64,000 nt of DNA from assembly GCA_965198115.1 (NCBI GenBank), contig OZ240241.1:6816001-6880000 (forward strand). The letters are read 5' to 3'. The position numbers and the translations under genes are program-made. The stretch comes from Candidatus Latescibacterota bacterium. Lineage in GTDB: Bacteria; Latescibacterota; UBA2968. Each line of letters opens with the position of its first letter. Position 1 is the first letter of the stretch. Positions 33,301-60,863 of this stretch are shown in pieces. The notes under the pieces are model-generated. The model made no database searches and was not told the origin of the DNA. It saw only the letters and a list, made by a program, of their open reading frames with translations.

Positions 33301-33335
33301 TTGACCAGTGACAAATGACCATTGACAATTGACAA
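33301..33335. repeat. Degenerate heptamer tandem array
   Basis: TTGACCA GTGACAA ATGACCA TTGACAA TTGACAA. Confidence 0.85.
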
Positions 33336-33393
33336 AAGGGTCTATTGGATTCCCTTACGTCAGTCGGTGATCAGTGGTTAACGGGAGGACCTA

Positions 33394-38625: not shown

Positions 38626-38643
38626 AGTAAAACCTCTATAGCT

Positions 38644-38708
38644 GGTGGACAGTGGGCGGTCGACCCACCTTCGCCAAGGCTTCGGCGGGCAGGCAGTGGA
38701 CGGTGTCT
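38644..38708. repeat. GGTGGAC-type heptamer array interrupted by a 30-nt hairpin element ending CAGG
   Basis: GGTGGAC AGTGGGC GGTCGA[CCCACCTTCGCCAAGGCTTCGGCGGGCAGG]C AGTGGAC GGTGTCT. Confidence 0.8.
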
Positions 38709-38742
38709 CTGGTTTGCGTGACTGAATCGCATCGGGGTTCGG

Positions 38743-39513
38743 CTATCGTGCCGCTTTTAGCGGGGTTCTAGATGGGCGGGCGTCGATGGCGAAGGGGAAG
38801 GTGCCTTCGTAGCCGCGGGCGCGAGAAACGAACCAGGCGCCCTCATACATGGGAGTTAATTGATAGTGACAGACGACGTTGCTCCGTTCGACACTGTCGT
38901 CTTCTTTTACGCCCTGATGAGGGATGTGGCTGATGAAGACGACGGCGTCACCGGCCTTAGGATAAATGACGACGTGCTCCTGAGCCTCACACCAGGCCTC
39001 GAACTTTGCCCGATCGAACGGATCTTCGTCCAGGTGACCTGGCTCGAAGGTGTGCCCGCGCTTGATGAACTTGAGGTGGGCGATGCCGGGGCCGTTGTCC
39101 TGAAAATAGAAGGTCGTGTTGACACCGACGGGTGGAACGGCGAGACGATATTTTTCAGCCCGTCGCTTCTCCTGCCAGTAGCCGTAGAAGTCCAGGTGCC
39201 ATTCCTGGTGGTAGGGCCCTGGGTTGATGTGCGCCCTGAAACTCCGCAGCTGGCATTGAGGGCCCATCATTCCCTCGAGCACAGGGCGGATGCTTTCGTG
39301 TCCGACGAGCGGTCCGAAGACTTCGGGTTCCCTGTCGAGGAGGGTGTCGAACCACATGTTTTCGACCTCGTTCAGCCCCTCCTCCCAGCCCTTCTCCCGC
39401 GCCTGATTGATGTGGACGCGGACTTCCTCGGTTTGTTCAGTGTCGAGCGCGTTTGGGATCAGGATGAAGCCTTCGGATTCCAATTCATCGAGTACTTCTT
39501 CAAGGTTGTTCAT
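38743..39513 (-). CDS. PhyH-family dioxygenase
   Basis: ESEGFI, EWHLD, AGDAVVF, IPHQG, RSN. Confidence 0.88.
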   Translation of the reverse strand: MNNLEEVLDELESEGFILIPNALDTEQTEEVRVHINQAREKGWEEGLNEVENMWFDTLLDREPEVFGPLVGHESIRPVLEGMMGPQCQLRSFRAHINPGPYHQEWHLDFYGYWQEKRRAEKYRLAVPPVGVNTTFYFQDNGPGIAHLKFIKRGHTFEPGHLDEDPFDRAKFEAWCEAQEHVVIYPKAGDAVVFISHIPHQGVKEDDSVERSNVVCHYQLTPMYEGAWFVSRARGYEGTFPFAIDARPSRTPLKAAR

Positions 39514-39723
39514 CTTTTTCTATGCTGAGCGGGTGATGGGGGGACGGGGCGAGTGGGAGAGCAGGCGTGGCGATGTCTTCTCCCTTCAGGTGAACACTCG
39601 AAGTCTACTCCTCTCCGCGGTTTTCCGTTGTTTCCTAGTGTCTTTCTGGTCATAGGGATACTTTGCGATTCCAGATTCGTTAAGGTCGATAGTGAGGTAA
39701 GGCAGTCGGGATGTGGCGACGGG

Positions 39724-40482
39724 TCAGGGTTTCACAGCGTCGCAGGCGGTGAAGAAATCCTCGTTCGATACACTGAAGCCATATTTCTGCTCGACTTCGC
39801 GGATGGCGATCTCGGTGGCGAAGAGCTGATCGAGAGTATCGGGGAATTCGACGCCGGTGGTTGCGTCGCGGAGCAGGATGACATTGTAGCCACGTCCTCT
39901 CATGTCCTTTACGCCATAGTCCCGATTGATGACGCACCAGTTCGTGGCGAAGCCGGCGTAGAGGAGGTGTAGGATGCCAGAAGATTCCAGTCGCTCGTGG
40001 AGCTGCTGTCCCGTGGCGATAACCACATCGTCCTCGCATACTTCCACGAGATCAGACATTCGATATTCGAAGTCTCGAATGCCCGGGTATTGCTGCCGGG
40101 GACCCCGATAGGCGTGGTAGTCGCCTTCACGATTCCGGAATGCTCTCGGGGGCCAATCCGGTTCGGGGTCTGGTTTGGGGGGCGTGTGTTCTTTGACCTT
40201 GTCATACCGTGTGGCGACTTGGGGACAGGGGCCGTGAATCACCTTGATACCGGCCTGCCTGGCTGCCTCAATCGCGGGCAGAATGTTGTCCTTCAACACG
40301 TTGCCCGCCCGCTCGAGCCAGCTTTCGATGAAATGGTCGTTCCACAGATCGACAAGGACGAGCGCCGTCTGGTCGATGGGCATTGACATAGGAATTTCAC
40401 GACGCTCGAAGTTTTCTTCACGAACGGGGATGCCTTCTGGCGTCGAATCTTGGAAATAACGGACTGTGAGATCGAGAGTCAT
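39724..40482 (-). CDS. Isochorismatase-like cysteine hydrolase
   Basis: TALVLVDLWN, LLYAGFATNWC, LLRDAT. Confidence 0.85.
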   Translation of the reverse strand: MTLDLTVRYFQDSTPEGIPVREENFERREIPMSMPIDQTALVLVDLWNDHFIESWLERAGNVLKDNILPAIEAARQAGIKVIHGPCPQVATRYDKVKEHTPPKPDPEPDWPPRAFRNREGDYHAYRGPRQQYPGIRDFEYRMSDLVEVCEDDVVIATGQQLHERLESSGILHLLYAGFATNWCVINRDYGVKDMRGRGYNVILLRDATTGVEFPDTLDQLFATEIAIREVEQKYGFSVSNEDFFTACDAVKP

Positions 40483-40508
40483 CAGTTGCCCCTGAGGTTT
40501 TAAACATC

Positions 40509-40558
40509 AGCCCGCTTCAGCGGGCTTCGGGCTATCAGCGTGGGACTTCAGTCCCACG
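40509..40558. repeat. REP-like palindrome doublet
   Basis: AGCCCGC-TTCA-GCGGGCT and CGTGGGAC-TTCA-GTCCCACG, two perfect hairpins with the same TTCA loop. Confidence 0.8.
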
Positions 40559-40685
40559 TGTATTTCGTTTGCGATATACGCGAAGACAAATCCGACCCCG
40601 GCCAACAACCGTACCGGGGTGATCTCCTTCCCTCCAAGCACGACGTCGGCGGTACCGTGATGCAGTCCCTCCTAGATTCCCCGTT

Positions 40686-42497
40686 TCATTCCCCTTCGCT
40701 CTCTGCGTTAAGAGCCGTTGGCAGGAGCGCTTCCAATTGGGCCATGGGGTCTTCAAGTGAATTGATGGCGTCGATCCAGAAGTCGGGTTCTTCAATGTCG
40801 ACGTCGATGCTTCGCTTGGCCACGCCTTCGGCAGAATCCGATCCTGTGAGACGCAGGAAATCTTCGTAGCGGGGAAGGAAGTCTGGGCCTTCCTGTTTGA
40901 ATCGGGCGAAGAGGCCACGGCTGAGGAGGAAGCCGAAGGTGTAAGGGAAGTTGTAAAAGGACACGCCCGTGATGTAGAAGTGCAATTTCGAAGCCCAGAA
41001 GTAGGGGTCCTCCGCTCCTTCGACGAGGACATCCCCGAAAACACGACGCTGTGTCTGGACCATCAGATCCTTGAGTTGCGTGACCGAAAGCTCGCCTTCC
41101 TCACGCTGCTCGTAGAGCGCACGTTCGAACTCGAAGCGGACCGGTATGTCGAGGAGGAAGATGGCACCGTGGCCGACGTCGGCGTCCAGCATGAGCGCTT
41201 TCTGGGGGTCGGTGGTGCCCGGGTCGTTCAAAACGCCTTCCGTGAGGATCATCTCACCGAAGGTGGATGCAGACTCGGCGAGGGTCATCGGATAGCTCCG
41301 CGCGAATGGGCGCAGATCGCGCATCACGTGGTTATGAAACGCGTGGCCCGCTTCGTGAGCGAGCGTTCGCACGTCCCCCATGGCCCTGTTGTATGTCATG
41401 AAAATGCGGGATTCACGCGTTAGGAGAGATCCCGTGCAAAATCCCCCTGGACGTTTGCCTTCGCGGGGGCTCCAATCGATCCAGCGACGGTCGAACATGC
41501 TTTGTGTGAATTCGCCGAGAGCGGGATACGCCTTGTCGAAAGCATTGTGGACGAGGGTGGTGGCGTGATCCCAATCGAGCGACTCGGGTTCTGCCAGGGG
41601 GAGCGGGGCGCCCAGATCATACCAGGCGATCCCCGGTTCGCCCATGGTTTTTGCTTTGAGCGCCAGGATGCGTCTCGGCAGTTCCCTTTGCGTCACGATG
41701 GCATCGAACATGGCATCGAGCGTTTTCTTTGAGACGGCTGCGTCGAAGAGGGCAACTTCCAGAAAGTGTGGGATCTCGCGGTGACGATAGAGGGTGAGCC
41801 GAGTACCCGAAATGGCGTTCAGGGCGGCTGCCGCAACGTCTTCGACACGTGCCCACGCTTCGTTCCCGCACTCGAACGCCGCACGCCTCACGTCTCGATC
41901 TGCTTGTTCCATGAGCGAGCGTCGTTGTGACATGGGGAGTCGTTCCGTTCGGCCGTCGGGGTAGGCCATGTCGAATTCCAGTTTTCCGGACACGGTGTCG
42001 TAGAGACGTCCCCAGGCTGAGATCCCATCGACTCCCAGGTCGGCAGCCAGTGCTTCCCGATCGGTAGACATCATGTATCGTGCTTCCTGTCGATCGCGTC
42101 GCAAGCTGTGCGCTGCGGAGATCAGCTTCTCCCGGTCGCAGAAGATTTCGAAGACACGATCCTCAGAATCCTTCAGACCTCGCAGGATTTCCACGTTGAG
42201 CTTGGCCATCGTAGCACCAAGTTGAGCGAACGCACCCTCGGCGCGTTGATAGTCCTCGTTTCGTGCGTCTGCGGACGTCAGGCATCCTAAGTACGAACCG
42301 AGATGGGAATAGCGCGTCACGAGCTCTTCCGTGTCGAGATACAGCCTTTCCCAGGCATCCTGGTTGGTCTCGTCTAGCACCTTGAGAGCCGAGGCGCGCT
42401 CGAGCAGGATCTGAATATCCCCCTGCAGGGCGTCGCGGAAGGTGTTCATTTCGTTTCCGCCGAATTCTGGAAAATATGACGCGAGGTCCCAGTCCAT
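40686..42497 (-). CDS. pepF: M3-family oligoendopeptidase F
   Basis: MDWDL start, GKRPGGFC, HEAGH zinc motif, TLAESASTFGE, FYNFPYTFG. Confidence 0.9.
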   Translation of the reverse strand: MDWDLASYFPEFGGNEMNTFRDALQGDIQILLERASALKVLDETNQDAWERLYLDTEELVTRYSHLGSYLGCLTSADARNEDYQRAEGAFAQLGATMAKLNVEILRGLKDSEDRVFEIFCDREKLISAAHSLRRDRQEARYMMSTDREALAADLGVDGISAWGRLYDTVSGKLEFDMAYPDGRTERLPMSQRRSLMEQADRDVRRAAFECGNEAWARVEDVAAAALNAISGTRLTLYRHREIPHFLEVALFDAAVSKKTLDAMFDAIVTQRELPRRILALKAKTMGEPGIAWYDLGAPLPLAEPESLDWDHATTLVHNAFDKAYPALGEFTQSMFDRRWIDWSPREGKRPGGFCTGSLLTRESRIFMTYNRAMGDVRTLAHEAGHAFHNHVMRDLRPFARSYPMTLAESASTFGEMILTEGVLNDPGTTDPQKALMLDADVGHGAIFLLDIPVRFEFERALYEQREEGELSVTQLKDLMVQTQRRVFGDVLVEGAEDPYFWASKLHFYITGVSFYNFPYTFGFLLSRGLFARFKQEGPDFLPRYEDFLRLTGSDSAEGVAKRSIDVDIEEPDFWIDAINSLEDPMAQLEALLPTALNAESEGE

Positions 42498-42533
42498 TAT
42501 GAGAAGCAGAACGGGTGATTGGGCGAAAAAGCA

Positions 42534-42561
42534 AGTGGGCGGTGGACAGTGGACGGTGGAC
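42534..42561. repeat. Uninterrupted GGTGGAC heptamer array
   Basis: AGTGGGC GGTGGAC AGTGGAC GGTGGAC. Confidence 0.85.
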
Positions 42562-42653
42562 GGACAAGACGGCTTCGCCCCGATGGACACTGCCACTGCA
42601 CGGGGAAGCAGTGAGGGCGTGGCGAACGAAGGTGCGAAAGGCTACCCATGCGG

Positions 42654-43427
42654 CTACACGCCCAGTTTTCGGACGAAGGCGAGGTTGCGGGCGTTGTCGG
42701 CGGCGGGATCATCTTCGCTCACAGGGGTTTCGAGCACGATGTAGCCGTCGTAGCCAATCTCGCGCATGGCTTCGTCGACGGCCTGGAAGTCGACTCTTCC
42801 ATCCCCGAGTGCCTGCCGGTCGGTATCCTTGGCGTGGATCATGCCGACTCTGGATGGACCGAGTTTACGCAACTCCATCGCGGGGTCCTGGTCTCGCATC
42901 ATTGTATTGCCCGTGTCGTGATAGACCTTGAGATGGTCGGATGCGACACTGTCGACGACGCGAACATACTGATCGGCGTCGAAGGTGGCTTCGAGATTCA
43001 GGGTTACATCGTGCTTCCCGGCGACTTCGCTCAGTGCCTTGAGACCGTCGAACAGCTGTGTCCAAGTGTCTTCCGGCCAGTCGTACATGTCCTTCGGGAA
43101 CATGGGAACCAGGATCTGATTCGTGTCGAGAGGTTGGCAGCATTCGATCGTGTGCGTGAGAATCGCCACTCCCTCTTCGCGCAATTCGGCTTCTGGCAAT
43201 GCCGGATGGAAGCGTGAGAAGACGCCCGGAGAGAGAGACGAAATCTCCGTGCCAGCAGCGGCGGCCATGCCCTTCAGACGGTCGATACCGCCGTCTTGCC
43301 ACAGGATATTGTCGGCGTATTCCGCTCCGATACAGAATTCAACACCGTCGAAGCCGATTTCGGCCGCGGCCATAAACGTGTCTTCGAGACCAACCTTCAG
43401 CATGCCGTCTCGGATTCCGTATTTCAT
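42654..43427 (-). CDS. Sugar phosphate isomerase/epimerase (AP-endonuclease-2-like TIM barrel)
   Basis: GFDGVE, LNLE, YHDTGN, IHAKD, GYDGYIVLE. Confidence 0.9.
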   Translation of the reverse strand: MKYGIRDGMLKVGLEDTFMAAAEIGFDGVEFCIGAEYADNILWQDGGIDRLKGMAAAAGTEISSLSPGVFSRFHPALPEAELREEGVAILTHTIECCQPLDTNQILVPMFPKDMYDWPEDTWTQLFDGLKALSEVAGKHDVTLNLEATFDADQYVRVVDSVASDHLKVYHDTGNTMMRDQDPAMELRKLGPSRVGMIHAKDTDRQALGDGRVDFQAVDEAMREIGYDGYIVLETPVSEDDPAADNARNLAFVRKLGV

Positions 43428-43502
43428 GGTGTACTCCAAGGAGAAGCGCCACTGAGGGCACTGAGAAACTTGAGAAAACCTATTACCGGGACCACGGAGA
43501 GC

Positions 43503-44309
43503 CTACGTGCGCCCTTCCAGTGCTTTCTTCAACCGGGCGGATCGTTCCTCGATGGCCTTTACGTACTCTGGCGTTCCGCAGAAGTCGTGGAGAGTGGCCC
43601 GTTTGCGGTAGGGTACGTAGTTGCCGAGGTGCCACGCACTCGATCGATAGAGCGCAAAATCGCCCGGATTCAATCGGAGTTGTACGCCTCCAGGCATGCA
43701 TTTTACGTAGTCCAGACAGTCGCGTTCCAGCTGCTCATCTGGATCGGTCGGAGACTCTCTGAACCGTTCCCGGTCATAAGCGTCCCGGGCGGCTTCCTCT
43801 CCAGGTGTGTTGTCCTGACGGTAGTGGCTGCCAGGGACGAACCAGGTGGAAGGATCCTCGTAGAGCGCACAGTTGACCTGGTTCATGTAGCGAATGTCGA
43901 AGACTTGGCGATCCCAGTCCTCGCGGAATTCTCTTTCGAAGATGTCCTTGGGGACGTGGTCGCGGTGGTCCCGATGCCAGTTAGTACACCACGGATGGTC
44001 AGCGGGTTCGAGGAGGATGCCGAGCCGGTTGGTGTCGGCGTGTGTATGACGCGGGGTTAAAACTCGCTGGATCGCGTCGTTCAGTTCCGGCAGTTCGCCG
44101 TAGTCCTGAAACGGTCGGAGGTCGAGGTCGAAAGCCCCAACGGGCTGCAGCCGCTGGGTCTGCGAACCCTTTTCGTCGCGGGCGATCTCTCGCGCTCGAT
44201 CGGAGACCCTTCGAAGGTCCGCAATCAGGGACGTCGGGAGGATTTCCCGAAAGATCGTACACCCCGTTGTGTGGTAATCGGTGATGTGCTTTTCAGAAAA
44301 GGTGAACAC
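43503..44309 (-). CDS. PhyH-family dioxygenase
   Basis: NWHRD, FVPGSH, PGDFALY, WHLG, RATLH. Confidence 0.88.
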   Translation of the reverse strand: MFTFSEKHITDYHTTGCTIFREILPTSLIADLRRVSDRAREIARDEKGSQTQRLQPVGAFDLDLRPFQDYGELPELNDAIQRVLTPRHTHADTNRLGILLEPADHPWCTNWHRDHRDHVPKDIFEREFREDWDRQVFDIRYMNQVNCALYEDPSTWFVPGSHYRQDNTPGEEAARDAYDRERFRESPTDPDEQLERDCLDYVKCMPGGVQLRLNPGDFALYRSSAWHLGNYVPYRKRATLHDFCGTPEYVKAIEERSARLKKALEGRT

Positions 44310-44500
44310 AGTAGCCCCAGTTAGAAGCGAGAAGGGAGTGGGCAGAAGGCTATGGGATTCGAGTGAAGCTGATGGTTTGAGATTCACCCCCGCGTAAAGG
44401 AGGGTGATGAGGGGTTGACCTTACCCCCAAAGATAGGCTCGGAATCGTAGTCGCGCAGCTGTGCGGTGCTCGAGTCAAGTGCGGGGTGGGAAACGGACAC

Positions 44501-46087
44501 TCACACCGTGCCCAGGTCTTTCAGACTGCCATTGCCGCGTTGCGGCCATTGGCGGCGATGACGCTGCCGCCGGGATGGGTTCCTGCTCCACAAAGGTAGA
44601 AGCCAGGCATGGGGCGTACGAGCAGAGAGACGACGATCCCACATCTGATCCGGGAGGCACTCGCCGTGAAAGATGTGGCCTCCAGTGATACGGATTTTCC
44701 TTTCGATATCAGGAGGGCCGAGGACTTCGAATTGTTCCACGGCATCGGGGATGTTGTCACAGAAGCGACCGATGGAGGCCAGCGCGAGGGAGGCGACTTC
44801 GTTCCGACGGTTATCCCAATCACCCTCGTGAAACGCGTACGGAACATATTGTGCGAACACGCTCATGACGTGACGACCGTCCGGGACGATGGAACGGTCG
44901 AGAGCGGACTGGAAATAGAGTTCCGTCCACAGGCGGTCGGGGAGCCTGCCTGCGTTTGCGATCGCGCAGTTTTCTCGCCACTCTCCTTTGGTCAGAGGCG
45001 TGTTGATCTGACCGCGGTGATGAAGGCAATCCTTGCCTGGACGAGCGGTGAAGCTGGGGAGCTCGTGAAGTGCGACGTTGAGCTTGACGGTGCAGCCTCG
45101 CATTGGAATGGCATCGATGGAGGATTTCCACGAGGGATCGCGGTGTGAGCCAAGAAGGGCCGATGTGGTGATCGGATCAGCGTTGGATATGACGACGGGT
45201 GAGGCAATCTTTTCACCGCTTTCGAGACATACGCCCTCGCCCGGCTCGATGGACCCGACGGGCAACCCAGCGGCAACGACAGCGCCCTCCTCTCGTGCGA
45301 TGTCGCACAAGATGAAACTGACGGTGCCCATGCCGCCCCTGACATAGCCCCATTCGCCCGCTCGGCCGAACATTCGCCCGCTCGAGTGATGAAAGCGGAT
45401 TGATGCGGTTCCCCTGTCGAAAGGGTTGGCGTTGGTGCCGATGACCCCTTGCCCTAGGAGCGCGACGTGCAGTCGCTCGTCTTCGAGGAACCGTTCGACG
45501 AAGTCGGCCATGGACCACTCGAAGAGGAAAGCAAGCGCATCGCCGTCACCTTTCAACCGATCGAAGATCTCGTCACGGGTGGGGGAGAGGGACAGCCAGA
45601 GGTCGCGTTCGTCGGCTGGCCGTAGCGCGTCGCGAATGCGGGTCACAAAGCGGCCCATTTCCTGCCATCCCTTCACATCGGGTGGCGATAGTTTCTTGAC
45701 TTCGTCGAGGCACCGCTCCTCGTTGCTCCAGAACCGGACGGAGGAGCCGTCCTCGAACGGCACGAACATGCCGGCTTCCGCGGGAATCCACTCGAATCCG
45801 TGGCCTTGAAGATCGAGTTCGTCGATGACGAGAGGGTGGAGCAGACCGCATAGGTAGGCGCAGGGCGAAATCTTGTAGCCGGGCCAGGTCTCTTCGAGCG
45901 TACAGGCGCCACCAACACGGTCGTTCGATTCGAGGACAAGGACTCGTTTACCGGTGCGGGCGAGATAGGCGGCGCACGTGAGTCCGTTGTGCCCCGCGCC
46001 GACGACGATGACGTCCCAGGACTTCCGTGTGAGCTCACGGATGGGTGGGTGGCCGATGAGGCCGAGAGTGGAGACGGCGGAGATCAT
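44501..46087 (-). CDS. Phytoene-desaturase-like NAD(P)/FAD-dependent oxidoreductase; C-terminus scrambled by compensating indels
   Basis: VVGAGHNGLTCAAYLA, VGGAC, GGMG, GGHIFHGE. The conserved YLCGAGTHPGG...NGRNAA is in another frame (44521-44610). Confidence 0.9.
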   Translation of the reverse strand: MISAVSTLGLIGHPPIRELTRKSWDVIVVGAGHNGLTCAAYLARTGKRVLVLESNDRVGGACTLEETWPGYKISPCAYLCGLLHPLVIDELDLQGHGFEWIPAEAGMFVPFEDGSSVRFWSNEERCLDEVKKLSPPDVKGWQEMGRFVTRIRDALRPADERDLWLSLSPTRDEIFDRLKGDGDALAFLFEWSMADFVERFLEDERLHVALLGQGVIGTNANPFDRGTASIRFHHSSGRMFGRAGEWGYVRGGMGTVSFILCDIAREEGAVVAAGLPVGSIEPGEGVCLESGEKIASPVVISNADPITTSALLGSHRDPSWKSSIDAIPMRGCTVKLNVALHELPSFTARPGKDCLHHRGQINTPLTKGEWRENCAIANAGRLPDRLWTELYFQSALDRSIVPDGRHVMSVFAQYVPYAFHEGDWDNRRNEVASLALASIGRFCDNIPDAVEQFEVLGPPDIERKIRITGGHIFHGECLPDQMWDRRLSARTPHAWLLPLWSRNPSRRQRHRRQWPQRGNGSLKDLGTV

Positions 46088-46124
46088 TAGGAAATTAGGG
46101 AATTACGAAAATAGGGAATTGCGG
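46087..46124. repeat. Degenerate octamer tandem array
   Basis: TTAGGAAA TTAGGGAA TTACGAAA ATAGGGAA TTGCGG. Confidence 0.8.
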
Positions 46125-46230
46125 TCACTGGCTCCTGGCATTGGAAGTCAATAGGCTCTTTCGGAAATAATCGGGCTATGATACCGCATAGACCTGTTTC
46201 ACGCTACGAGACCCGTGAAGGAGTGCCGTC

Positions 46231-47061
46231 GTGAATACCACGAATAAACGCAGAGAGCCCGTTCGGCGACTGGTGACGTTTGGAGAAAGCCACACGGTTG
46301 GGATCTCGGCGACCCGACCTGGAGACGGATGGGCGGTGGTTCTGAAAAGGCTGATCGATCGATTTCAGGATGAAACGGTGGAACTGATCAATCAGGGGAT
46401 CGGGGTGGATGTATTGTCGAAGGCGTGTCCCATCTACCAGGAATACGAGGGGAGACGTCCGATCGGAATCGAGCGCTACCACCGCCACGTGATCGAGGAA
46501 CGCCCTGACCTGGTCGTGGTGAGCTTCGGCTACAATGACATGAGAGGGGGGACACCGATCGATGCTTTCGAAAGAGACCTCCGGACGGTCATCGGAGATG
46601 TCCAACGCGAAACGGATGCGCTCGTGGTGCTGATGGATACGTACGCCATTCCCGGCGTGGGCCACACGGGTCGAACGGGAGGCACGGTGGCCGGATCGGC
46701 GTGGAATCGAGGCACGCGCGAAAGCCAGTCGGCCTATAACCGAATGCTCGAAGATGTGGCCGGAACGATGGATCTCGTCTTCGCCAGGGTATTCGAGGCG
46801 CAGGACGCCGCACCGTGGACGTTCTGCAGCCCGGAAGGAACAGAGGACATCCACGCGAACGATCTTGGTCACCTGCTTATCGCCCACCGCGTGTTCGAAG
46901 CGATCGCGACGCAATGCAGTTTCCTGTCGATCAAACCGCTACGAGATCGGGAGCAATCCGGGAAGAGCCCTTGGCGGTATGGTGATGACTCGCGGGAGGC
47001 GAAGTTGGTTGCGGACTTCTACCCGAAGAGCCCGGACGCGCGAAGTTTCCGCCGCAGGTAA
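46231..47061 (+). CDS. SGNH/GDSL hydrolase
   Basis: FGESHT (block I, GES variant), NQGIG, GYND, DIHANDLGH. Confidence 0.88.
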   Translation: MNTTNKRREPVRRLVTFGESHTVGISATRPGDGWAVVLKRLIDRFQDETVELINQGIGVDVLSKACPIYQEYEGRRPIGIERYHRHVIEERPDLVVVSFGYNDMRGGTPIDAFERDLRTVIGDVQRETDALVVLMDTYAIPGVGHTGRTGGTVAGSAWNRGTRESQSAYNRMLEDVAGTMDLVFARVFEAQDAAPWTFCSPEGTEDIHANDLGHLLIAHRVFEAIATQCSFLSIKPLRDREQSGKSPWRYGDDSREAKLVADFYPKSPDARSFRRR

Positions 47062-47119
47062 TTGCTTCTGACATTCACCCCCGTTTGTTCGCTAGAGGCG
47101 GGACAAGGGGCCACAGTGC

Positions 47120-49078: not shown

Positions 49079-49080
49079 CG

Positions 49081-49151
49081 CGGACGGTGGGCGGTAGACG
49101 GTGGGCCTTCGCTACGCCTGCTGCGCAGGCTACTCAGGACAGGCGGTCGGC
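49081..49151. repeat. GGTGGGC/GGTAGAC heptamer array interrupted by a 38-nt element ending CAGG
   Basis: GGTGGGC GGTAGAC GGTGGG[CCTTCGCTACGCCTGCTGCGCAGGCTACTCAGGACAGG]C GGTCGGC. Confidence 0.78.
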
Positions 49152-49156
49152 TGAGG

Positions 49157-50700: not shown

Positions 50701-50858
50701 GATGGCTCCTTGGGTTGCACGTCTTCTTTCAGAACTGGCAATCGGCAACCAGTCCTCCTTCGATACAACCTAGTTATTGGTTGCAGTGTTTGCTACGCGG
50801 TCGTTGGATTCGCCACGAGGTCACTCAGGATGACCGGTTGCTGGCAAGTGTATTCTTC

Positions 50859-52092: not shown

Positions 52093-52093
52093 G

Positions 52094-53188
52094 TCAGTCC
52101 CTTCTTTGTTTCTCGATCAGTTCCTCGTCCCATTCGATGCCGAGACCCGGCTTGTCACTCATGTATATGAAGCCGTCTGATCGAAAATCGACGGGGAGCA
52201 TGAGCTTGTTCTTGAAAGCGGTCGGGTAGTTCTCGGTGATGAGACCGTTGTCGACGGCAGCCACACAGGTAGAGCCGATGTTGGGATTTCCGTGAGGGGC
52301 CATTTTGAGATGATGGGCACTGGCAAACGCGGCAACCTTGAGCCACTCGCTGATACCACCACACGTGTTGGGATCGAGCTGGATGATGTCTGCGGCCCCT
52401 GCGTCGATCAGGTCGCGCGCGCCCCAACGGGTGAATTCATTTTCTCCGCTCGCGATGGGTATGTCGAGCTTCTCGGCAAGTAGCGCGCCGCCACGAAAGT
52501 CGTCGGCGCGTACGGGTTCTTCGAACCAATACGGATCGTAAGGCTCCATCATTCGGGCGAAGCGGAGAGCCGTGCGTGCATCCCAGGCATTGTTGGCATC
52601 GACCATCAGTTCGATGTCGGGTCCGATTGCCTCGCGCACGGCCCGGACGCGTTCGGCGTCGTGAAGAAGCGTGACGCCGTCCCACCCGACCTTCATTTTG
52701 ACCGCCCGAAACCCGGCGTCGACGTAGCTCGTCAGCTCAGCGCAGAGGTCTTCGACCGTTTTCCCTTCCTCGTAATATCCGCCGGCAGCATAGGCAGCAA
52801 CTCTGTCCTGGACACCGCCGGCGAGCTTCCAGACGGGCTGGTTCAGCGCCTTACCCTTGAGATCCCACAGCGCGATGTCGACAGGGCTCATGCTGTTGAT
52901 GTAATCACCCTTGGCGACGGGTTTCCTCGCACCCCCCATGTACATCTGTTCCCACAGGTAACCGATCCGTAGGGGATCCTCGTCGATCAGCTTCTTGCGG
53001 ATGGCTCCGAGGATTTGGGCCTTCTTGACGCCCGACGCGCTGGTAGGGGACATTCCGACGATGCCCCCATCGGTGTGGATTTCGAGACGGCCGCCGCCGG
53101 AGGTCGTGGTCTTTTTAATCGAATTCCAGAACGGATTTTGGAGGGGGCCGAAGCTGACACCTGTGAGTTTCAGGTCGGTGATTTTCAT
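52094..53188 (-). CDS. Mandelate racemase / muconate lactonizing enzyme family protein
   Basis: DIALWDLKGK, VKMKVG, MVDANN, WFEEP, SGENE, APHG, KPGLG. Confidence 0.95.
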   Translation of the reverse strand: MKITDLKLTGVSFGPLQNPFWNSIKKTTTSGGGRLEIHTDGGIVGMSPTSASGVKKAQILGAIRKKLIDEDPLRIGYLWEQMYMGGARKPVAKGDYINSMSPVDIALWDLKGKALNQPVWKLAGGVQDRVAAYAAGGYYEEGKTVEDLCAELTSYVDAGFRAVKMKVGWDGVTLLHDAERVRAVREAIGPDIELMVDANNAWDARTALRFARMMEPYDPYWFEEPVRADDFRGGALLAEKLDIPIASGENEFTRWGARDLIDAGAADIIQLDPNTCGGISEWLKVAAFASAHHLKMAPHGNPNIGSTCVAAVDNGLITENYPTAFKNKLMLPVDFRSDGFIYMSDKPGLGIEWDEELIEKQRRD

Positions 53189-53248
53189 GGTGGCCCTGGG
53201 TAGACAGGAGTTTGTCGGCCATCGTAGGGGTCACGGCATGTCGTGAAC

Positions 53249-54097
53249 CTACTCGTCGATGACGCGCTTGAGGACGTTGGTGGCTTCCATTTCCCAGACC
53301 TCGTTGAAGACGAGAGGCTTGGGGCGAGGAGGCGGATACCCTGGGGGTGGATTGTTGGAGTCGTGGAGCTCGAGACGGTCCAGACCCCGAACCTGGTCCA
53401 GCCACTCGCGTTCTTCGGGGGAAGCATCGCATTTGCGTCGAAGGATGAATTCGACCCAGTCGAAAGCCGTAATGGCCACGTCCGCGACGAAGATGCGTTG
53501 GATGTCGTCGCCCGTCCAGGTTGCGAGGTCCGGCAGAAGGATGGGGCCGGTGCAGACCTGAAACTGTGGATCGTCCTGATTGATGTTGATGAGATTGACG
53601 GGGTACTCAGCCGTGACCGTGAATCCCTTGTCCTTATAGGTCGAAAACGCGCTCATCACGTCGTTACTGAGTGTGGCCTCGACGACCGCCTTGTCGTCTG
53701 CGAGGTCCTCGGTCTTTTCGAAAGATCGGATGTCGATCTTGTAGTCCTGATATCCCTCGTCAAGGGGTTTAGTCGAAATTGGTTCTGTTTCGGTGCTTGG
53801 CCGAACGGCAATGCCGAGGCCCGACTTTCGACTGAATGCCATCCGCCACTCGTTGCTGGGTATCTGGAAGAGATTCCGTCGGGCGATGGTGTACTCGCTA
53901 CGGCAGGGGGAGCCCAGGAAGCACTCGGAGGATGTGCCCGTTGAATCCTCGACGATTTCGCAGCGGGCGACGAGGTTGAAACGAACCTGGTAGGCTTCAC
54001 CTGGCTCGCCTACGTACCCGCCCATCCATTTGTAGTGCGGGTCAGGTTTCCACGGATGGCCGAACCACGTGAAGGTCGAACGGAAGAAGTCGATCAT
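53249..54097 (-). CDS. Hypothetical protein
   Basis: 282-aa ORF with GAGG RBS and coding-like composition; no family recognised. Confidence 0.75.
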   Translation of the reverse strand: MIDFFRSTFTWFGHPWKPDPHYKWMGGYVGEPGEAYQVRFNLVARCEIVEDSTGTSSECFLGSPCRSEYTIARRNLFQIPSNEWRMAFSRKSGLGIAVRPSTETEPISTKPLDEGYQDYKIDIRSFEKTEDLADDKAVVEATLSNDVMSAFSTYKDKGFTVTAEYPVNLININQDDPQFQVCTGPILLPDLATWTGDDIQRIFVADVAITAFDWVEFILRRKCDASPEEREWLDQVRGLDRLELHDSNNPPPGYPPPRPKPLVFNEVWEMEATNVLKRVIDE

Positions 54098-54119
54098 AGA
54101 AACCTCTTAAAAGCGGGGA

Positions 54120-54268
54120 CCACGGAATACACGGAACACACGGGAAAGAAAATCCAGAAACGGAACCACGAAATACACGAACGGATGGGCCAACCTAGGT
54201 GCCCTTATCAAGCACCGACACTTCCCCTCACATTCGTTCGGGGCAGGCTCCCGCTCAGTGTGTGACGG
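54120..54268. repeat. Composite repeat cluster: 9-mer arrays plus nested structured elements
   Basis: CCACGGAAT ACACGGAAC ACACGGGAA; CCACGAAAT ACACGAACG; CACTTC[CCCTCACATTCGTTCGGGGCAGG]CTCCCGCTCAGTGTGTGACGG. Confidence 0.8.
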
Positions 54269-54308
54269 TATTAATGTGCTCGGCCGAAGGGAATGTGTGG
54301 ATTGGTGT

Positions 54309-55131
54309 TCATTTGTGGTTCCCGTTTTCGAAACCGGCGAAGCCGTATTCCCTGAGGAAGTCGATCCACTTTTGGCGGACGGGGCTGTTGTCGGGGTTGG
54401 CTATCCAGTGCGCGGGGCGTTTTACGAGAGGAAAGGAATCAATTAGGCTGGTCTCTTGCTCAGCCCGTTCGCGGATCGACGCTTCGTCGTCCTCGCTCGG
54501 CGCGAAATATCCCACGCTGCACATCCTGCGGTCCGGTCCTCCGCCCCAGCTGGCGTGCCAGACGCGATTGTCGAAGGCAATGACGTCGCCCGGTGTGGAG
54601 TCGGCAGCGAAGGCGGGCACTTCATGCACGTCGAGGCCGGTTTCGTCTTCGACGCCTCGGTTGCTCTCCCTCAGGCGGATGTTCTCGCGGATGCTTGTGT
54701 GAAGCGGGTTCCGATGCGAGCCCGGGATGAAGCGCAGTGCACCCGTGGCGCCGTCGAGCGGCTGGAGATAGAAGGCGAACTTGACGCCTTTTCGATCGAG
54801 GTGTCCCGTGTCGGGATGCCATTCGGTGCGGTCGCCAGAGAAGGCGTTTCCGTTTGCGTACATGCCGACAACTTCGTCATCGAGAAGCTGTTCGGCGGGT
54901 TCGTGGAAACGCGAATCCTCCAGGAGTGATCCCAGGAAAGGCGAATCCGGTCCGAGGTTCGTCCAATTGTATTGTTTCCCGGATGCCGCGTTCGTCCGTT
55001 TGTTGGCGTGCGGTTGACAGCCGCACGTTGAATTCTTCGTCGGCGGTTGTGATCTCCTTCTGCAACAGGAGACCTCGGAAGATCACGAATCCGAAGACCT
55101 GGAAATGTCGTACCTGGCTATCGGTCAGCAT
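54309..55131 (-). CDS. PhyH-family dioxygenase, +1 frameshift at 54978-54980
   Basis: HFQVFGF...GIR, then KQYNWTNLGP...EWHPD, FIPGSH, PGDVIAFD, WHAS. Confidence 0.88.
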
Positions 55132-55184
55132 GTTGTCCTCCGTAGAACCGAATGCATCGTGCTTCGTAATTACCGAATCCGTCG

Positions 55185-55211
55185 CACTTCGACTCCCGCT
55201 CAGTGTGACGG
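55185..55211. repeat. Structured intergenic element CACT-TCGACTCCCGCTC-AGTG-TGACG
   Basis: Uninterrupted counterpart of 54219-54268; core identical to 32197. Confidence 0.8.
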
Positions 55212-55252
55212 GTCGTTTTTTGAGAAGGATGACGGCGAACCGCCCCTGTCAT

Positions 55253-56266
55253 TCATTTGCTGGGAAGCTTGACCATTTTCCGGAGCGCGTTAAGTGGATC
55301 GGGTGTCGGGATGTCCGGTTTGAGCTGTGGCCAGGCCGTGGCGGCGACTTCTCCAACGTAGACGTCCCCTCTCGAATCGACGGTGAGGCCGTGGGGTGAG
55401 ATGAACTGGCCCGGATCGTTCCCGGCTCCGTGGTAGTCCCCGATGCGTGCGAGCAGGTTACCCCCATTGTCGACGATGCTGACGCGCGGACCGAGATTCG
55501 GCACGTTCCGGTTGACGGCCATCGTCGGACCACATTCCCCGATGTAGCAGACCGAACATTTGCCCGGTGGCATGTAGAGGCCGCTCGGCCGGTGAAGGTT
55601 GTTCCACTGCGTTTCGTAGTTCCCCTGGCCATCGAAGACCTGGACGCGGTGGCTCTCGCGGTCGGCAACGTAGACCCAACCATCTGCGTCGCAGCAAATG
55701 TTGTGCGGAATGTTGAATTCGCCCGGCATTGTGCCGGGCCCGCCCCACGAAAGCATGAGTTTTCCGTCGGGCGAGAATTTATGGATGCGTGCGTTCCCAT
55801 AGCCATCGGAGACGTAGAGATCGCCTTCAGGCGACATGGCCGTATGCGTGCAGCGATGGAAAGGCTCCTGACTCATATACGGTGACGGCTTGCCAGGAAT
55901 GCCGAGGGTCATCAGGACTTTGCCATCGAGCGTGCACTTGCGGACGGTATGGTCGCCGTCATCCGTCAGGTAAAGGGTATCATCGGGTGCGTAGTGCGCG
56001 CCGTGAGCGCGAGGGAAGGTGCCTTCGCCCCACGAGCGCAGGAAGTTTCCTTCTCGGTCGAAAACGAGCATTGGATGAGGGCCGCGATTGAACACATAGA
56101 CGTTGTCGTTGCCGTCGACGGTGACGGATCCGACCTCGCGCCAGGCCATTTCGGGTGGCACCTTCGCCCAGCCGTTGATGATCTCGTAGCGGTATTCGCC
56201 TTCTCCCTGGATGTTCAGTGCTGTTTGCTCTCTGCCGGTGGTGGTAGTGCCTACGGCCATGATCAA
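55253..56266 (-). CDS. NHL-repeat protein, peptidyl-alpha-hydroxyglycine alpha-amidating lyase (PAL)-like
   Basis: VYVFNRG, RAHG, YVSDGYGNARIHKFS, FNIPHNI, YVADRESHRVQVFD, SPHG. Confidence 0.88.
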   Translation of the reverse strand: MIMAVGTTTTGREQTALNIQGEGEYRYEIINGWAKVPPEMAWREVGSVTVDGNDNVYVFNRGPHPMLVFDREGNFLRSWGEGTFPRAHGAHYAPDDTLYLTDDGDHTVRKCTLDGKVLMTLGIPGKPSPYMSQEPFHRCTHTAMSPEGDLYVSDGYGNARIHKFSPDGKLMLSWGGPGTMPGEFNIPHNICCDADGWVYVADRESHRVQVFDGQGNYETQWNNLHRPSGLYMPPGKCSVCYIGECGPTMAVNRNVPNLGPRVSIVDNGGNLLARIGDYHGAGNDPGQFISPHGLTVDSRGDVYVGEVAATAWPQLKPDIPTPDPLNALRKMVKLPSK

Positions 56267-56381
56267 GCCCTTTCATCGAGGGAACAGCGATATCCGATGT
56301 CAGACTGATGATATCAGATATCTGGTATGCAGATGTCGGGCCATCTACGCAATGCTCAATTTAGCATCGAGCGTCGAGTAT

Positions 56382-56856
56382 TCAAGAATCGAGAGACTGG
56401 AGGGTGTCTGATGACCCGAGCGTGAGGATGAAGTTGACGGTCTGCTGGACTTCGCGAAAGCCGATCGCTTTGTGGAACTTCTGGCTTCGCTTGTTTTCGA
56501 CTTCGGTACTGCTGGCGAGGACTGACGCACCGACTCGGGTGGCGAGTTCGCGGACGAGGTGGGTCGCTACATCTTGACGGCTCGTGGGGCTCGACGTAGA
56601 TCCCTTCGAGATACCAAACTGGACGTTCGTCGGCTCCCGTCACATAGTCCGTTCGGAGCTCGCCCTCGGTGAATCCGACGGGGTTGTCGGCCTCATCGAA
56701 CGCCAGCAGCGTGAGTGCCTCGCCCTGGCGTTGCCGGTTCTGGTAGTAGGTCAGCGCTTCGCGACAGTCGTCTTCGTCGTCCTCCCAGAAGCGGTATCGC
56801 ATTCCGGCCCAGATGTCGAAGAGGTCCGGGGTGAGTGGTTTGAAGTGGATGTTCAT
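56382..56856 (-). CDS. GNAT acetyltransferase, AAC(6')-I-like, +1 frameshift at 56586-56589
   Basis: GFTEGELRTDYVTG...YLEGIYVEP, then in the corrected frame SRQDVA...LASSTEVEN..SQKFHKAIGFREV. Confidence 0.75.
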
Positions 56857-56872
56857 TTGGTCTGGGCCGGGT

Positions 56873-56900
56873 GTAGGACCACGGCATGGTGTGGTCCTAC
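56873..56900. repeat. GTAG-type REP hairpin
   Basis: GTAGGACCAC...GTGGTCCTAC, perfect 10-bp stem just downstream of the 56908 gene. Confidence 0.75.
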
Positions 56901-56907
56901 GGTCACG

Positions 56908-57900
56908 TCAGCCATTCAATCCCGGGGTAAACAGGACCATGTCGTCTTCCAGCGACCGGGCGGGCTTGATCCCTAGCTTGTCGAGTTTATTTCGGTAGGC
57001 TTTGACGCCTTCCTCGGGGCAGATCTGGTCGTCGGCGACATCGCGGAGTACTTCTACGAAGGCGCGCGGGTCTTCGGCGCCTTTGATGCGGCGACCGAAG
57101 AGGGATACGCGAGCGCCGTGCTTTTTGGCCTCGGAGATGAGTTTGTAAGCATCGTAGGTAGTGCTTGTGACGCCGCCCAGAATGCCGACGATGACGGAGG
57201 GGTCATAGTTGACGAGGGCTTCCATCGATTCCGGGCCGTTATAGGCGATCTTGAGAAACTTGGGGCGGGAAGCCCGTGGGATGCCGGCAAGCATCCTGGC
57301 GATCTGATCGATGACGTAGGTTGGAATGTCGTCTTCCGGAATTCCGCAGTCCTCGACGTTGGGGTTGAAGACCTCCAGGAAGTAGCGAAACTCCTTCTGG
57401 GCGGCTTCGATGCGGAACTCCTTGAACATTTCGAGGGAATACCAGTCGGCGTCGAGATCGTTGTTGAAGGTGACAGAGTAAAGGCCGAGATCGACGTCGG
57501 GTGTCTGATCCGCGCTTGGAAGAAGGGTGCCATACTGCCCCTCTTCGATCGTCGTTGTCGCATAGGGTCGTGATGGCTCGTTCGAATATCGGGCACCTCG
57601 CGCTTTCCAAAGATCGGTCGTGTCGTTGGCGCGAATGGCCGGCGTGACGGATGAACTGTCGAAGCAGCGCTTTTCTCTTGCGAGGATGTCCATGCTCGAT
57701 ACCGATGTAAGCAGGATGTCGATTTTGGCTTGCTCGATCAGATCGACGAGGGTCTTGCAGTACATCTGGATGGAATAGTTCGGTCCGAATGTGGCGACGC
57801 CGCCAGACATATCGGAGTCAGCGGCATACGCGATGATGAATGCATCGCTGTTCGGGTTCGTGCGAATATCTTCCAGCTTCTTATCGAGCGACTTCTGCAT
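56908..57900 (-). CDS. Putative class I aldolase-like TIM-barrel protein (DeoC/LacD-like)
   Basis: RANDTTD, YFLEVFNPN, FLKIAY (candidate Schiff-base Lys), GILGG, LFGRRI. Confidence 0.6.
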   Translation of the reverse strand: MQKSLDKKLEDIRTNPNSDAFIIAYAADSDMSGGVATFGPNYSIQMYCKTLVDLIEQAKIDILLTSVSSMDILAREKRCFDSSSVTPAIRANDTTDLWKARGARYSNEPSRPYATTTIEEGQYGTLLPSADQTPDVDLGLYSVTFNNDLDADWYSLEMFKEFRIEAAQKEFRYFLEVFNPNVEDCGIPEDDIPTYVIDQIARMLAGIPRASRPKFLKIAYNGPESMEALVNYDPSVIVGILGGVTSTTYDAYKLISEAKKHGARVSLFGRRIKGAEDPRAFVEVLRDVADDQICPEEGVKAYRNKLDKLGIKPARSLEDDMVLFTPGLNG

Positions 57901-57915
57901 GGGACTCCTCTTCGA

Positions 57916-58872: not shown

Positions 58873-60329
58873 GATGCCTCTCCTAACCAGAAAGAGTAGA
58901 CCTTAGCACCCTCCAATTGGAACCTGGCTCGGACCAACCCTGTCACAGATTCAGACGTGTTCCAGTTCACTCGAGCACGCAGCTGATCTCCACGAATCGC
59001 ATCACAGTTCTCCGCCGCGTATCCTTTCAGGGTCTTACCCGTCTCAACGTTCAGTAGTTCGACTCGCAAGCTGCCCTCGACCGTCGTATTGAGGTAAAGA
59101 TCTCCACCAGTCCATTCGAAGGGTTCGGTAACCACTGTGCCGTGACCAGCATCGAGGGAGATAAAACCGTCCAGCCGAAGCTTGGCCAGACACAAGGCCC
59201 CGATGTCATCGTGGTATGCCCCGTCAACAACGTCCCCGTAGAGCTCCTGCGGGCCTCGGAAGCGGTAGGCGTTGTAGTAAATCCAGATCTCGTCGTCGCG
59301 AATTTGGGGTCGCCCGGCAAGAAGGTTCTGTGCGCAGCCGTAGTTGACGCCATCCCAGGGGTCTATCCCAATGAAGAGTGCCCGGTCTCCGACTCTGTCC
59401 CAGTGATACAGGTCGCGCGAGGTCGTTAGTTCGACCTGATTCAGCGCCGTGTAGTTCAGATGCGGAGGTGGAATTGCAGCGGCGGGATTGAAGAGGACGG
59501 GGAATCCGACGTAGATGCCTTCGTAGGGGAGAATGGGCATCTGGTAGACTTCGGCGATGAAATCGGTATCGTGGATGAGTGGTGGAGAAAGATAATCTGG
59601 GTGCTCGACGACCTCCTGAATGCGTCGAGCGCGGTTCTCACGATCGACTTCGTCGGAGTGGAAGATCAGCTCTGGCTTCGACCATTGCACGAAGTCTTTG
59701 CTGGTGCAGAGCCAGACGGACCGCCCCCAATCGGTTTTGTGTTTCACGGTCGCGACGAACTGTTCCGTCTGCTCATCGTAGGTACAATGGGATTCGTCTT
59801 GGCTCGGTACGGGCGGCACATCGAGCGCGGTCCAGTCGAATCCGTCGGGAGAAACCTTGACGACACGATCGATTTTGCCGAAGAGTCCTTTGTATCGGCG
59901 CGCTGGATTCGGATCACGATCATCGCGAAGGACATGGTAGACCGTCTGCTTGCCTTCGGCTGGATCGAGGGCCACGCTGTTGTCCGTGTTCCCCTGCCAC
60001 TCGTGAAGCCCGAGGGGGGACGTGTCCCACGTCTCGCCGTCGCCCGACGTCGCGTAATGCGGGAGATAGATGCTCGCGGTGTGACGTGGTCCATACGGTT
60101 CGGTTGGGTAGTAGGCCCAGTACCACCATTCCCAGACCTTCTTTTCCGGGTTCCAGAACGGGGCGCTGCGGCTCTGGACGGCGTTTTGGTTTCGTGATTG
60201 ATCGGGCCGGATGACGGGGCCGCATTTCTCCGCCTGATGGAGCGTTCGCGTGACACCTTCCAGGCTCTGGATAGCGCCATCGTCGAGGAAGAGCTGTCTG
60301 TGTTTATCGGGATGGAGTATTCGTGACCC
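58869..60329 (-). CDS. GH32/GH43-like beta-propeller hypothetical protein; canonical start missing
   Basis: The frame is open about 118 codons upstream of GTG 59975 (HRQLFLDD, YATSGDGETW); SPDGFDW, SRDLYHW, LRLDGFISL. Confidence 0.7.
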   Translation of the reverse strand, partial: GSRILHPDKHRQLFLDDGAIQSLEGVTRTLHQAEKCGPVIRPDQSRNQNAVQSRSAPFWNPEKKVWEWWYWAYYPTEPYGPRHTASIYLPHYATSGDGETWDTSPLGLHEWQGNTDNSVALDPAEGKQTVYHVLRDDRDPNPARRYKGLFGKIDRVVKVSPDGFDWTALDVPPVPSQDESHCTYDEQTEQFVATVKHKTDWGRSVWLCTSKDFVQWSKPELIFHSDEVDRENRARRIQEVVEHPDYLSPPLIHDTDFIAEVYQMPILPYEGIYVGFPVLFNPAAAIPPPHLNYTALNQVELTTSRDLYHWDRVGDRALFIGIDPWDGVNYGCAQNLLAGRPQIRDDEIWIYYNAYRFRGPQELYGDVVDGAYHDDIGALCLAKLRLDGFISLDAGHGTVVTEPFEWTGGDLYLNTTVEGSLRVELLNVETGKTLKGYAAENCDAIRGDQLRARVNWNTSESVTGLVRARFQLEGAKVYSFWLGEAS

Positions 60330-60365
60330 CTGGAACTTGCTGGAAGAAGCGCCTGACCACCGCAG

Positions 60366-60407
60366 ATTGAGAATTCGTAATTCCCAATTGGTAATTCGAA
60401 ATCTGTG
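60366..60407. repeat. Degenerate heptamer tandem array
   Basis: ATTGAGA ATTCGTA ATTCCCA ATTGGTA ATTCGAA ATCTGTG. Confidence 0.8.
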
Positions 60408-60411
60408 GAAA

Positions 60412-60729
60412 TCATTTCTCGATGTGGAATACTTCTCTCAGTTCTTTCATAATTGGGCTGTTGTCGGGGTTTGAGGCCATGATTTCACGCATGTGGGCCC
60501 ACCATTTCTTGCAGATTTCCATCTCGGCGACGGCCGCCCAGCGTTCCTCGTCTTCGATCTCGGCGTAGGCGAAGAGCTGATGTGTGTCGGCATCCAGGTA
60601 GATCGAGTAGTCAAGAACTCCCTGAGCTTTGAGCGCTTCTTCGAGCTCTGGCCAGATCGGCCTGTGACGTCTCTCGTATTCTTCGTGCTGGTCGGGGTTG
60701 ACGCTCATGACGAAGGCTTTACGGATCAT
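60412..60729 (-). CDS. rhaM: L-rhamnose mutarotase
   Basis: [36 protein letters not shown]. Confidence 0.93.
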
Positions 60730-60755
60730 GGTTTACCTCGTGAAATACTATCCCA

Positions 60756-60781
60756 CCCCTCACGTTCGTTCGGGGCAGGCT
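60756..60781. repeat. CAGG-ended element, second copy
   Basis: CCCCTCACGTTCGTTCGGGGCAGGCT, 25/26 identical to 54224-54249, beside a CACGGAATATACGGA 9-mer array. Confidence 0.85.
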
Positions 60782-60863
60782 ACACACACGGAATATACGG
60801 ACGAAAAGAACCAGAAGATCGAGACCCTATTCGGGGGGATGCTTGAGATACACGGGAGGGTGG

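Follow-up and report, generated by a model that had tools for sequence, protein, structure and literature searches.

CCTG-tagged hairpins as very small insertion elements of other repeats, and their possible link to small GIY-YIG nucleases

In the window considered here (a stretch of 64,000 nucleotides, C1:6816001-6880000 of the source genome G000, which is a single contig of 8.43 Mb), four short hairpins ending in CAGG are found within other small repeats, and the question that they raise is whether sequences of this size are mobile and, if so, what moves them. Read on the opposite strand, each begins with a CCTG tag which is directly followed by the hairpin. The analysis described below indicates that hairpins of this kind are very probably mobile insertion elements: their copy number, the existence of filled and empty sites, the lack of target duplication and the independent insertion of different elements at the same host site are all observed. 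Small single-domain GIY-YIG nucleases are the candidate enzymes for their movement.

An earlier note on this DNA had proposed a micro-insertion system whose copy number should exceed that of shuffled sequence, and a genome scan bears this out. The family pattern, which includes the CCTG tag by definition, matches 190 CAGG-ended hairpins outside the long repeats of G000 (a few of them judged by eye to be false matches), exactly four of which lie in the window, compared with none in the reversed genome and three and none in two Markov-simulated genomes of 7 Mb. These copies comprise 139 with a short loop (class S, mostly 24 nt), 32 with a long loop (class Lg, mostly 39 nt) and 19 of a third class, E1 (mostly 30 nt); S copies measure 23-24 nt in 132 of 139 cases, and the E1 and Lg copies are longer, most of them 30-45 nt. 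There are 121 distinct element sequences, all with fixed boundaries. The stems covary: in 81 copies picked solely by their core and tail, pairing is seen at 84% of stem positions, compared with 64% (maximum 70%) when the partners are shuffled. The motif C-GNA-G, whose loop forms stable single-stranded DNA mini-hairpins, occurs on the strand that begins with the tag in 99/139 S, 30/32 Lg and 19/19 E1 copies, and on the other strand in 3, 12 and 1 respectively. Under standard DNA energies the predicted folding of the four window elements is weak (z from -0.02 to -1.14).

The main tags among short-loop cores are CCTG (139) and GTCA (85), the latter being TGAC, the second common ending of the S core (85-100 copies), read on the opposite strand; the repeat at 55185 is of this kind. 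The S core is also seen with the tails TAAA (20), CAAG (10) and TGTA (8), and one orthologous nested element ends in CAGG in G001 (C31:64510), a genome of the same genus whose genes are 70-84% identical to those of G000, and in TGTA in G000 (C1:1293589). A generic scan for tags placed before any hairpin gave a CCTG enrichment ratio of 1.03, that is, none, so that family patterns are required for detection. In G000 the 14 close pairs of CAGG hairpins enclose ordinary-looking genes or nothing, and no autonomous element bounded by such hairpins on both sides was found. A regular cluster is present at G020:C1:1060627-1063622, where a 32-base CAGG hairpin occurs seven times, mostly at intervals of about 266 bases.

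Insertion was assessed by joining the two flanks of each copy and seeking an uninterrupted version of the resulting sequence elsewhere in non-coding DNA, a search which was used in place of an automatic classification of hosts by periodicity and hairpins, the latter having proved too weak where hosts are short. An intact host exists elsewhere for 118 of the 190 CAGG copies (S 93/139, Lg 18/32, E1 7/19); the same search succeeds for 3 of 100 hairpins ending in TGAC and for 4 of 150 intergenic sites taken at random. The junctions present 180 distinct contexts, and 19 different element sequences occur at a single junction, immediately after AACCA. The hosts consist of 7-, 8- and 9-mer arrays like those found on either side of GxxExxY and four-helix-bundle genes, GTCA-tagged hairpins, palindromes of GTGG/GTAG type, and other CAGG elements.

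Filled and empty alleles among relatives, for which the earlier note had suggested a search, are also found: in G001 the sites orthologous to the elements at 49106 (a heptamer array) and 60756 (a 9-mer array) are empty. The spacers that correspond to 38664 and 54224 contain no host repeat in G001, there being no array at the orthologous place of 38643..38705, and are uninformative. At other orthologous hosts, one palindrome holds different elements in opposite orientations in the two genomes, one array holds different elements at different positions, and a third site holds the same element. This comparison covers 17 pattern matches in about half a megabase of the 5.6 Mb of G001, 12 of which were mapped to G000; two of the 12 are false matches in genes, and several spacers are too diverged to be read.

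The cleanest filled/empty series comes from phages, at a junction where the stop of a small gene overlaps the start of a lambda-type portal gene. Among the best 80 of 543 relatives, 68 read TGATGTGG, the conserved stop/start overlap; three hold an E1-type hairpin exactly between TGA and TGTGG with nothing duplicated or lost (one of these is the query's own contig, one ends in CGGG and one carries a second, nested hairpin), and two hold an S hairpin five bases further on. In a filled junction the portal start is parted from the upstream stop, and another ATG lies downstream. Copies of E1 are also seen within long open frames of viral contigs (L100, L101, L103, L105, L113), where their 30 bases preserve the frame.

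The reconstructed hosts reveal two types of junction. The net offset is zero in 81 of 118 hosts, and at these the insertion is clean for Lg (14/16) and E1 (5/6), whereas in 46 of 59 S copies the element's own tail, most often CTCC, takes the place of the 3-4 host bases that follow. At 138 E1 loci across phyla the preceding base is A or T in 98, and the following base is C in 90 and T in 31. Target preference is weak. The preference for heptamer arrays, at a fixed phase of the unit, which had been read from the window is not borne out in that form: just 9 of the 190 copies were scored as heptamer-hosted, and insertions are also seen in arrays of 8- and 9-mers, in other hairpin repeats and at an ordinary junction of phage genes. 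Seven of the nine lie before the C of the unit and two at position 5, and the apparent phase arises because insertion favours a site before C.

The features of the window are collected in Table 1. All four elements lie where the earlier note placed them, as do the uninterrupted array and the intact repeat, no target duplication is seen at any of the four elements, and the inner palindrome described for the element at 49106 is present. The location of the third and fourth elements, E3 and E4, was also correctly given, and their length and start require revision: both are 24 nt with a CCCC/GGGG stem, beginning at 54224 and 60756. E3 interrupts a repeat as had been supposed, though not cleanly, since 2-3 host bases are gone relative to the intact host, and E4, thought to lie beside a 9-mer array, is actually within the array head, the array being unbroken in the same-genus orthologue. 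The three elements within 38000-57900 are covered, with zero differing letters, by contigs assembled from the short-read runs X1 and X2; both runs come from one sample, from which the assembly itself may derive. The neighbours of the four elements are ordinary metabolic genes. The insertion-sequence load of G000 is very high, with 862 long repeats over 1.37 Mb, some words occurring about 244 times, and 75 Y1_Tnp matches.

Table 1. Hairpin elements of the window, their host repeats and the uninterrupted repeats used for comparison.
Feature	Position	Strand	Remarks
E1-class element, 30 nt	38664..38693	-	CCTG tag on the minus strand, then hairpin with 6-bp stem; clean insertion
Heptamer array hosting E1	38643..38705	+	Junction between GA and CAGT
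Uninterrupted heptamer array, same family as hosts of E1 and of the 49106 element	42534..42561	+	
Long-loop (Lg) element, 38 nt, with inner palindrome	49106..49143	-	
Heptamer array hosting the 49106 Lg element	49080..49150	+	Junction between GG and CGGT
Short-loop (S) element E3, 24 nt plus 4-nt tail CTCC	54224..54251	-	Within stem arm of GTCA-tagged hairpin repeat
GTCA-tagged (CGTC/SRM-like) hairpin split by E3	54213..54266	-	
Intact GTCA-tagged hairpin	55185..55209	-	TGAC-ended sister class, 85-100 genome copies
Short-loop (S) element E4, 24 nt plus 4-nt tail CTAC replacing host bases	60756..60783	-	In 9-mer array head
Remainder of 9-mer array hosting E4	60784..60802	+	Array kind found flanking GxxExxY genes

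The family is not confined to this genome. The exact E1 pattern occurs at at least 121 loci in GTDB genomes, and the matches listed include, according to record titles, Acidobacteriota, Verrucomicrobiota, Planctomycetota, Patescibacteria, Bacteroidota, Omnitrophota, Alphaproteobacteria and others; viral loci number 17 for the E1 pattern and 41 for the S pattern. Across the 138 E1 loci the stem ends covary (C-G in 64, T-A in 61). S-type CAGG hairpins, detected with a looser pattern, are found in 15 of 30 relatives, and within the phylum the strict E1 pattern is absent from the 120 other genomes searched, G001 having a looser E1 copy.

The hairpins had been thought to be non-autonomous and moved in trans, and their very small size, lack of duplication, nesting and lack of an adjoining cognate enzyme all agree with this; the enzyme itself stays putative. 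There is no GIY-YIG open reading frame within 600-700 nt of any of the 138 E1 loci, and no protein family recurs beside them, as is expected if the units are non-autonomous. The suggestion that nuclease genes flanked by the motif be sought proved productive, in that all three cores flank small single-domain GIY-YIG genes. G000 has three such genes, each flanked by a different hairpin core: the Lg core, that of the 49106 element, matches hairpins flanking an intact gene (G000:C1:214177-214467), the S core flanks a gene split by an insertion sequence (G000:C1:510706), and the E1 core precedes a frameshifted gene (G000:C1:5945432). As judged by sequence comparison, each hairpin core matches the flanks of a GIY-YIG clade.

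In a quick tree of 86 small GIY-YIG proteins, which must be read with the reservations that it has 87 columns and a clade support of 82 and that the flank labels are patterns tuned after the flanks had been viewed, E1 flanks occur in 14 of the 23 rows of a presumably 'SLX1-like' clade named SGSG after its C-terminal motif, in two more rows on the same side, and in none of the 48 on the other side. The nearest solved structure to an SGSG protein is 1ZG2, of UPF0213 (E=0.0027). Among 44 dereplicated SGSG genes, 31 follow the 3' end of a tRNA or tmRNA, the E1-type hairpin beginning at CCA. The E1 arm together with the tail is found upstream of 13 of the 44 (CAGG 5, CAAG 4, CGGG 3, CGAG 1), compared with 0/34 downstream controls and 7/5000 random windows; the CAGG ending is therefore native to the left end of SGSG genes, and a CAGG-like tail is seen only in this clade.

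Several features of these genes are recorded here as observations in their own right. SGSG genes at tRNA or tmRNA 3' ends behind a hairpin pair (L481-L561, and G001:C5:162133-162660, which is L562) resemble an undescribed tRNA-targeted mini-element. In G000 the gene (C1:5945432-5945870) is preceded by 11 bases that repeat the end of the tmRNA, which itself lies 36 kb away, as would be the case if an island had been inserted between the two. Further small GIY-YIG genes (L236, L241, L243, L248, L261, L269, L270, L278) have a tRNA gene on one side and an incomplete duplicate of its 3' part on the other, sometimes as tandem units, and small hairpins there replace or interrupt tRNA loops. An apparent co-occurrence of strict S hairpins with an SGSG gene (3/5 compared with 1/26) collapsed under a looser pattern.

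The preferred reading of these data is that the hairpins, as non-autonomous insertion elements of 23-45 bases consisting of a CCTG tag and a hairpin, may be copied in the form of single-stranded DNA by small single-domain GIY-YIG nucleases acting in trans, a proposal which is drawn from sequence comparisons and whose chances are put at about even. The strand recognised would be the one that begins with CCTG. A nick 5' of the tag would set that end of the element, at the tag itself for E1 and Lg and four bases beyond it in many S copies, so that the latter would overwrite 3-4 target bases; the foot of the hairpin would set the other end. Breaks, most of them preceding a C, would then receive the single-stranded piece through host repair. 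Small repeats of other kinds are probably preferred as targets because nicks or single-stranded stretches occur in them and insertions do little harm there; filled hosts might in some cases later spread as composites, and S and Lg copies may be moved by GIY-YIG clades of their own. According to the parts available of PMC11893778, the small GIY-YIG protein SsnA binds a tagged hairpin and cuts one strand only, a few bases upstream. In S copies, the 8 bases from the stem to the end of the tail (CAGG plus tail) equal the SsnA cut distance as interpreted from that source, 8 nt before the stem, and the agreement is suggestive only.

A broader form of the proposal is more doubtful and is offered tentatively. 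The small GIY-YIG nucleases would be the transposases of cross-phylum elements of 24-30 bases; the autonomous form would be the tRNA/tmRNA-targeted SGSG gene, whose left-end hairpin has broken free; and the CCTG tag would have been grafted onto hairpins of other GIY-YIG clades, producing parasites of other small repeats, into which they insert either scarlessly or with four bases overwritten.

A number of points weigh against the nuclease reading. GIY-YIG enzymes act by hydrolysis, and no joining step is known for them. What PMC11893778 shows, in the parts available, is cleavage, not insertion. One SGSG query gave no gene in 12 of the 15 relatives that have CAGG hairpins, finding genes only in G001, G002 and G010, and 17 of 43 E1-bearing genomes, many of them small drafts, have no SGSG match at E<=1e-10. 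In G000, G002 and G010 the SGSG gene is broken, and in G001 its second codon is a stop. At 29 GIY-YIG loci of the phylum, as judged by eye, the terminal hairpins end in TGAC, TGAG or TGAA, and those ending in CAGG are merely nested. The 4-nt tail, common in G000 (CTCC 49/139), is rare in viral S copies (CTCC 2/41). Finally, no joint that skips an element was found in the contigs of runs X1-X3, which represent one study and a form of data from which rare variants are dropped.

If no dedicated mobiliser exists, the elements could instead be repair patches, or products of template switching, at nicks made by the enzymes of the host repeats (GxxExxY, Ssn-like or RAYT), spread afterwards from one host copy to another by gene conversion. 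This account, which is considered unlikely, is consistent with the nature of the hosts, which are the flanking repeats of GxxExxY, four-helix-bundle and GIY-YIG genes, with the recurrence of near-identical composites (the E3 host type has 8 filled and 27 intact copies in the genome), and with the leading-strand bias of the elements (76/118), which is matched by that of the host arrays (52/69, 17/24 and 20/28). It does not readily accommodate the precise insertion at a phage gene junction that lacks any repeat or homology, the presence of the same 30-mer with covarying stem ends in many phyla, or the fixed boundaries shared by all of the distinct element sequences.

A somewhat less probable account replaces the GIY-YIG nuclease by an HUH tyrosine transposase (RAYT or IS200 TnpA), which would use CCTG as its guide tetranucleotide and move the hairpins in the manner of REPs, thereby explaining the scarless joining. 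The position of the tag directly 5' of the hairpin and the lack of target duplication correspond to the IS200/REP layout, as far as this is described in the parts available of PMC6006769, and Y1_Tnp matches abound in G000. CAGG hairpins, however, flank none of the 13 Y1 loci inspected, which were selected from the 75 matches for differing from the main IS200 copies, and a word search of the available part of PMC3733652, a survey of GTAG/CGTC tags, did not find CCTG. Moreover, no protein family recurs beside the E1 loci, and the cores match the flanks of GIY-YIG genes instead.

Movement through RNA, in which a 3' end would prime reverse transcription, has reportedly been proposed for cyanobacterial small dispersed repeats, and is improbable here. 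The native E1 hairpins do begin at the CCA end of tRNA genes, and 38 of the 190 left flanks end in CCA, a count that is confounded with ACCAC arrays; yet the single-contig genome G000 contains no RVT_1 match, the elements between co-oriented genes have no consistent sense (24 sense, 36 antisense), and an Rfam search of the window gave zero matches. That the hairpins are fixed functional motifs, either terminators or protein-binding sites, is very improbable in spite of their mostly intergenic location (133/190, by a crude open-reading-frame mask), since they occur in filled and empty orthologues, in both orientations and nested in each other, and since the precise filled and empty phage junctions contradict it.

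The host repeats may themselves be of interest. GxxExxY genes flanked by inverted 8-9-mer arrays are found at G000:C1:6612358, 3766748, 1497257 and 4556715 (L063-L068), and arrays of this type are also scattered intergenically (for example at 54117-54185 of the window) with a leading-strand bias; they may constitute a mobile system of their own. Two four-helix-bundle genes (G000:C1:5507043 and 4611338; L061, L062) are flanked by 7- and 8-mer arrays whose families are also dispersed, including at 33302-33336 and 46086-46120 of the window.

The closest published kinds of repeat are the cyanobacterial small dispersed repeats (SDRs), REP tags and the Ssn/SRM system. The SDRs of Nostoc, in the account of Elhai et al. 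in 2008, are said to be of 21-27 nt and to insert into heptamer arrays and into each other; the S class has a similar size and nesting, with known empty hosts, the SDRs being compared by description only. The S pattern had no match on one N. punctiforme plasmid, the sole Nostoc sequence searched. In the parts available of PMC4390886 and PMC5861425, SDRs are likewise very small mobile repeats with precise insertion, SDR5 inserting precisely in HIP1. According to the same portion of PMC5861425, no SDR-like repeat occurs in HIP1-rich cyanobacteria outside the Nostocaceae, whereas the CCTG family is present in many phyla. SDRs are also treated in passages of PMC3116915, and the present family is like them in behaviour and like REP and SRM hairpins in build.

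The Ssn/SRM-NTS repeats resemble the CCTG family in that small single-domain GIY-YIG genes are flanked by directional tag-plus-hairpin repeats which are also dispersed, a layout that the authors liken to an insertion sequence (PMC11893778, in the parts available). The tags differ, being CCTG in one case and (C)GTCA in the other, and the published SRM pattern matches 0/190 CAGG copies and 0/100 TGAC copies (74 matches in the genome compared with 58 in the reversed genome). The three G000 GIY-YIG proteins fall outside the NTS-flanked clade in a weak quick tree. Filled/empty insertions and nesting do not figure in the available text of PMC11893778, nor in the 12 of its 14 supplements that were searched for five motifs.

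REPs and REPINs with GTAG or CGTC tags are, like the CCTG hairpins, imperfect hairpins of 20-40 nt with an unpaired four-base tag, and some sit in small palindromes, other REPINs or genes (parts of PMC3733652 and PMC3116915, and for the build also of PMC6006769). The CCTG family has no GTAG, GTGG or CGTC tag, consists of single hairpins rather than doublets, and flanks none of the 13 inspected Y1 loci. Miniature inverted-repeat transposable elements (MITEs) have terminal inverted repeats and a target-site duplication; the CCTG family shares with them and with the Rickettsia palindromic elements the form of a non-autonomous palindrome, and its units of 30 and 24 nt keep the frame, but it is much shorter and lacks both terminal inverted repeats and target duplication. 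The available part of PMC3733652 describes the Rickettsia elements as non-autonomous palindromes, some of them in frame in genes. No description of the CCTG-tagged family was found in the literature searched, subscription papers and bioRxiv supplements lying outside its scope, and the five core motifs had no match in the open-access papers searched. PMC12306157 contains neither CCTG nor CAGG, and word searches of PMC4692102 and PMC4679880 returned nothing relevant.

To what is known of such repeats, the present work adds a test for empty hosts across the genome, two types of junction, a series of filled and empty phage sites and a connection with GIY-YIG clades. How repeats of fewer than 40 bases spread is an open question, since the cleavage of tagged hairpins by Ssn has been shown and their insertion has not, and the CCTG family, with its precise filled and empty sites, its two junction types and its named candidate enzymes, makes this a directly testable question. 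If the proposal is true, elements of 24-30 bases would be among the smallest mobile DNAs known, and the chemistry of their scarless insertion would be of interest to DNA engineers. In the genomes of many phyla, such elements add short peptides and shift the starts of genes.

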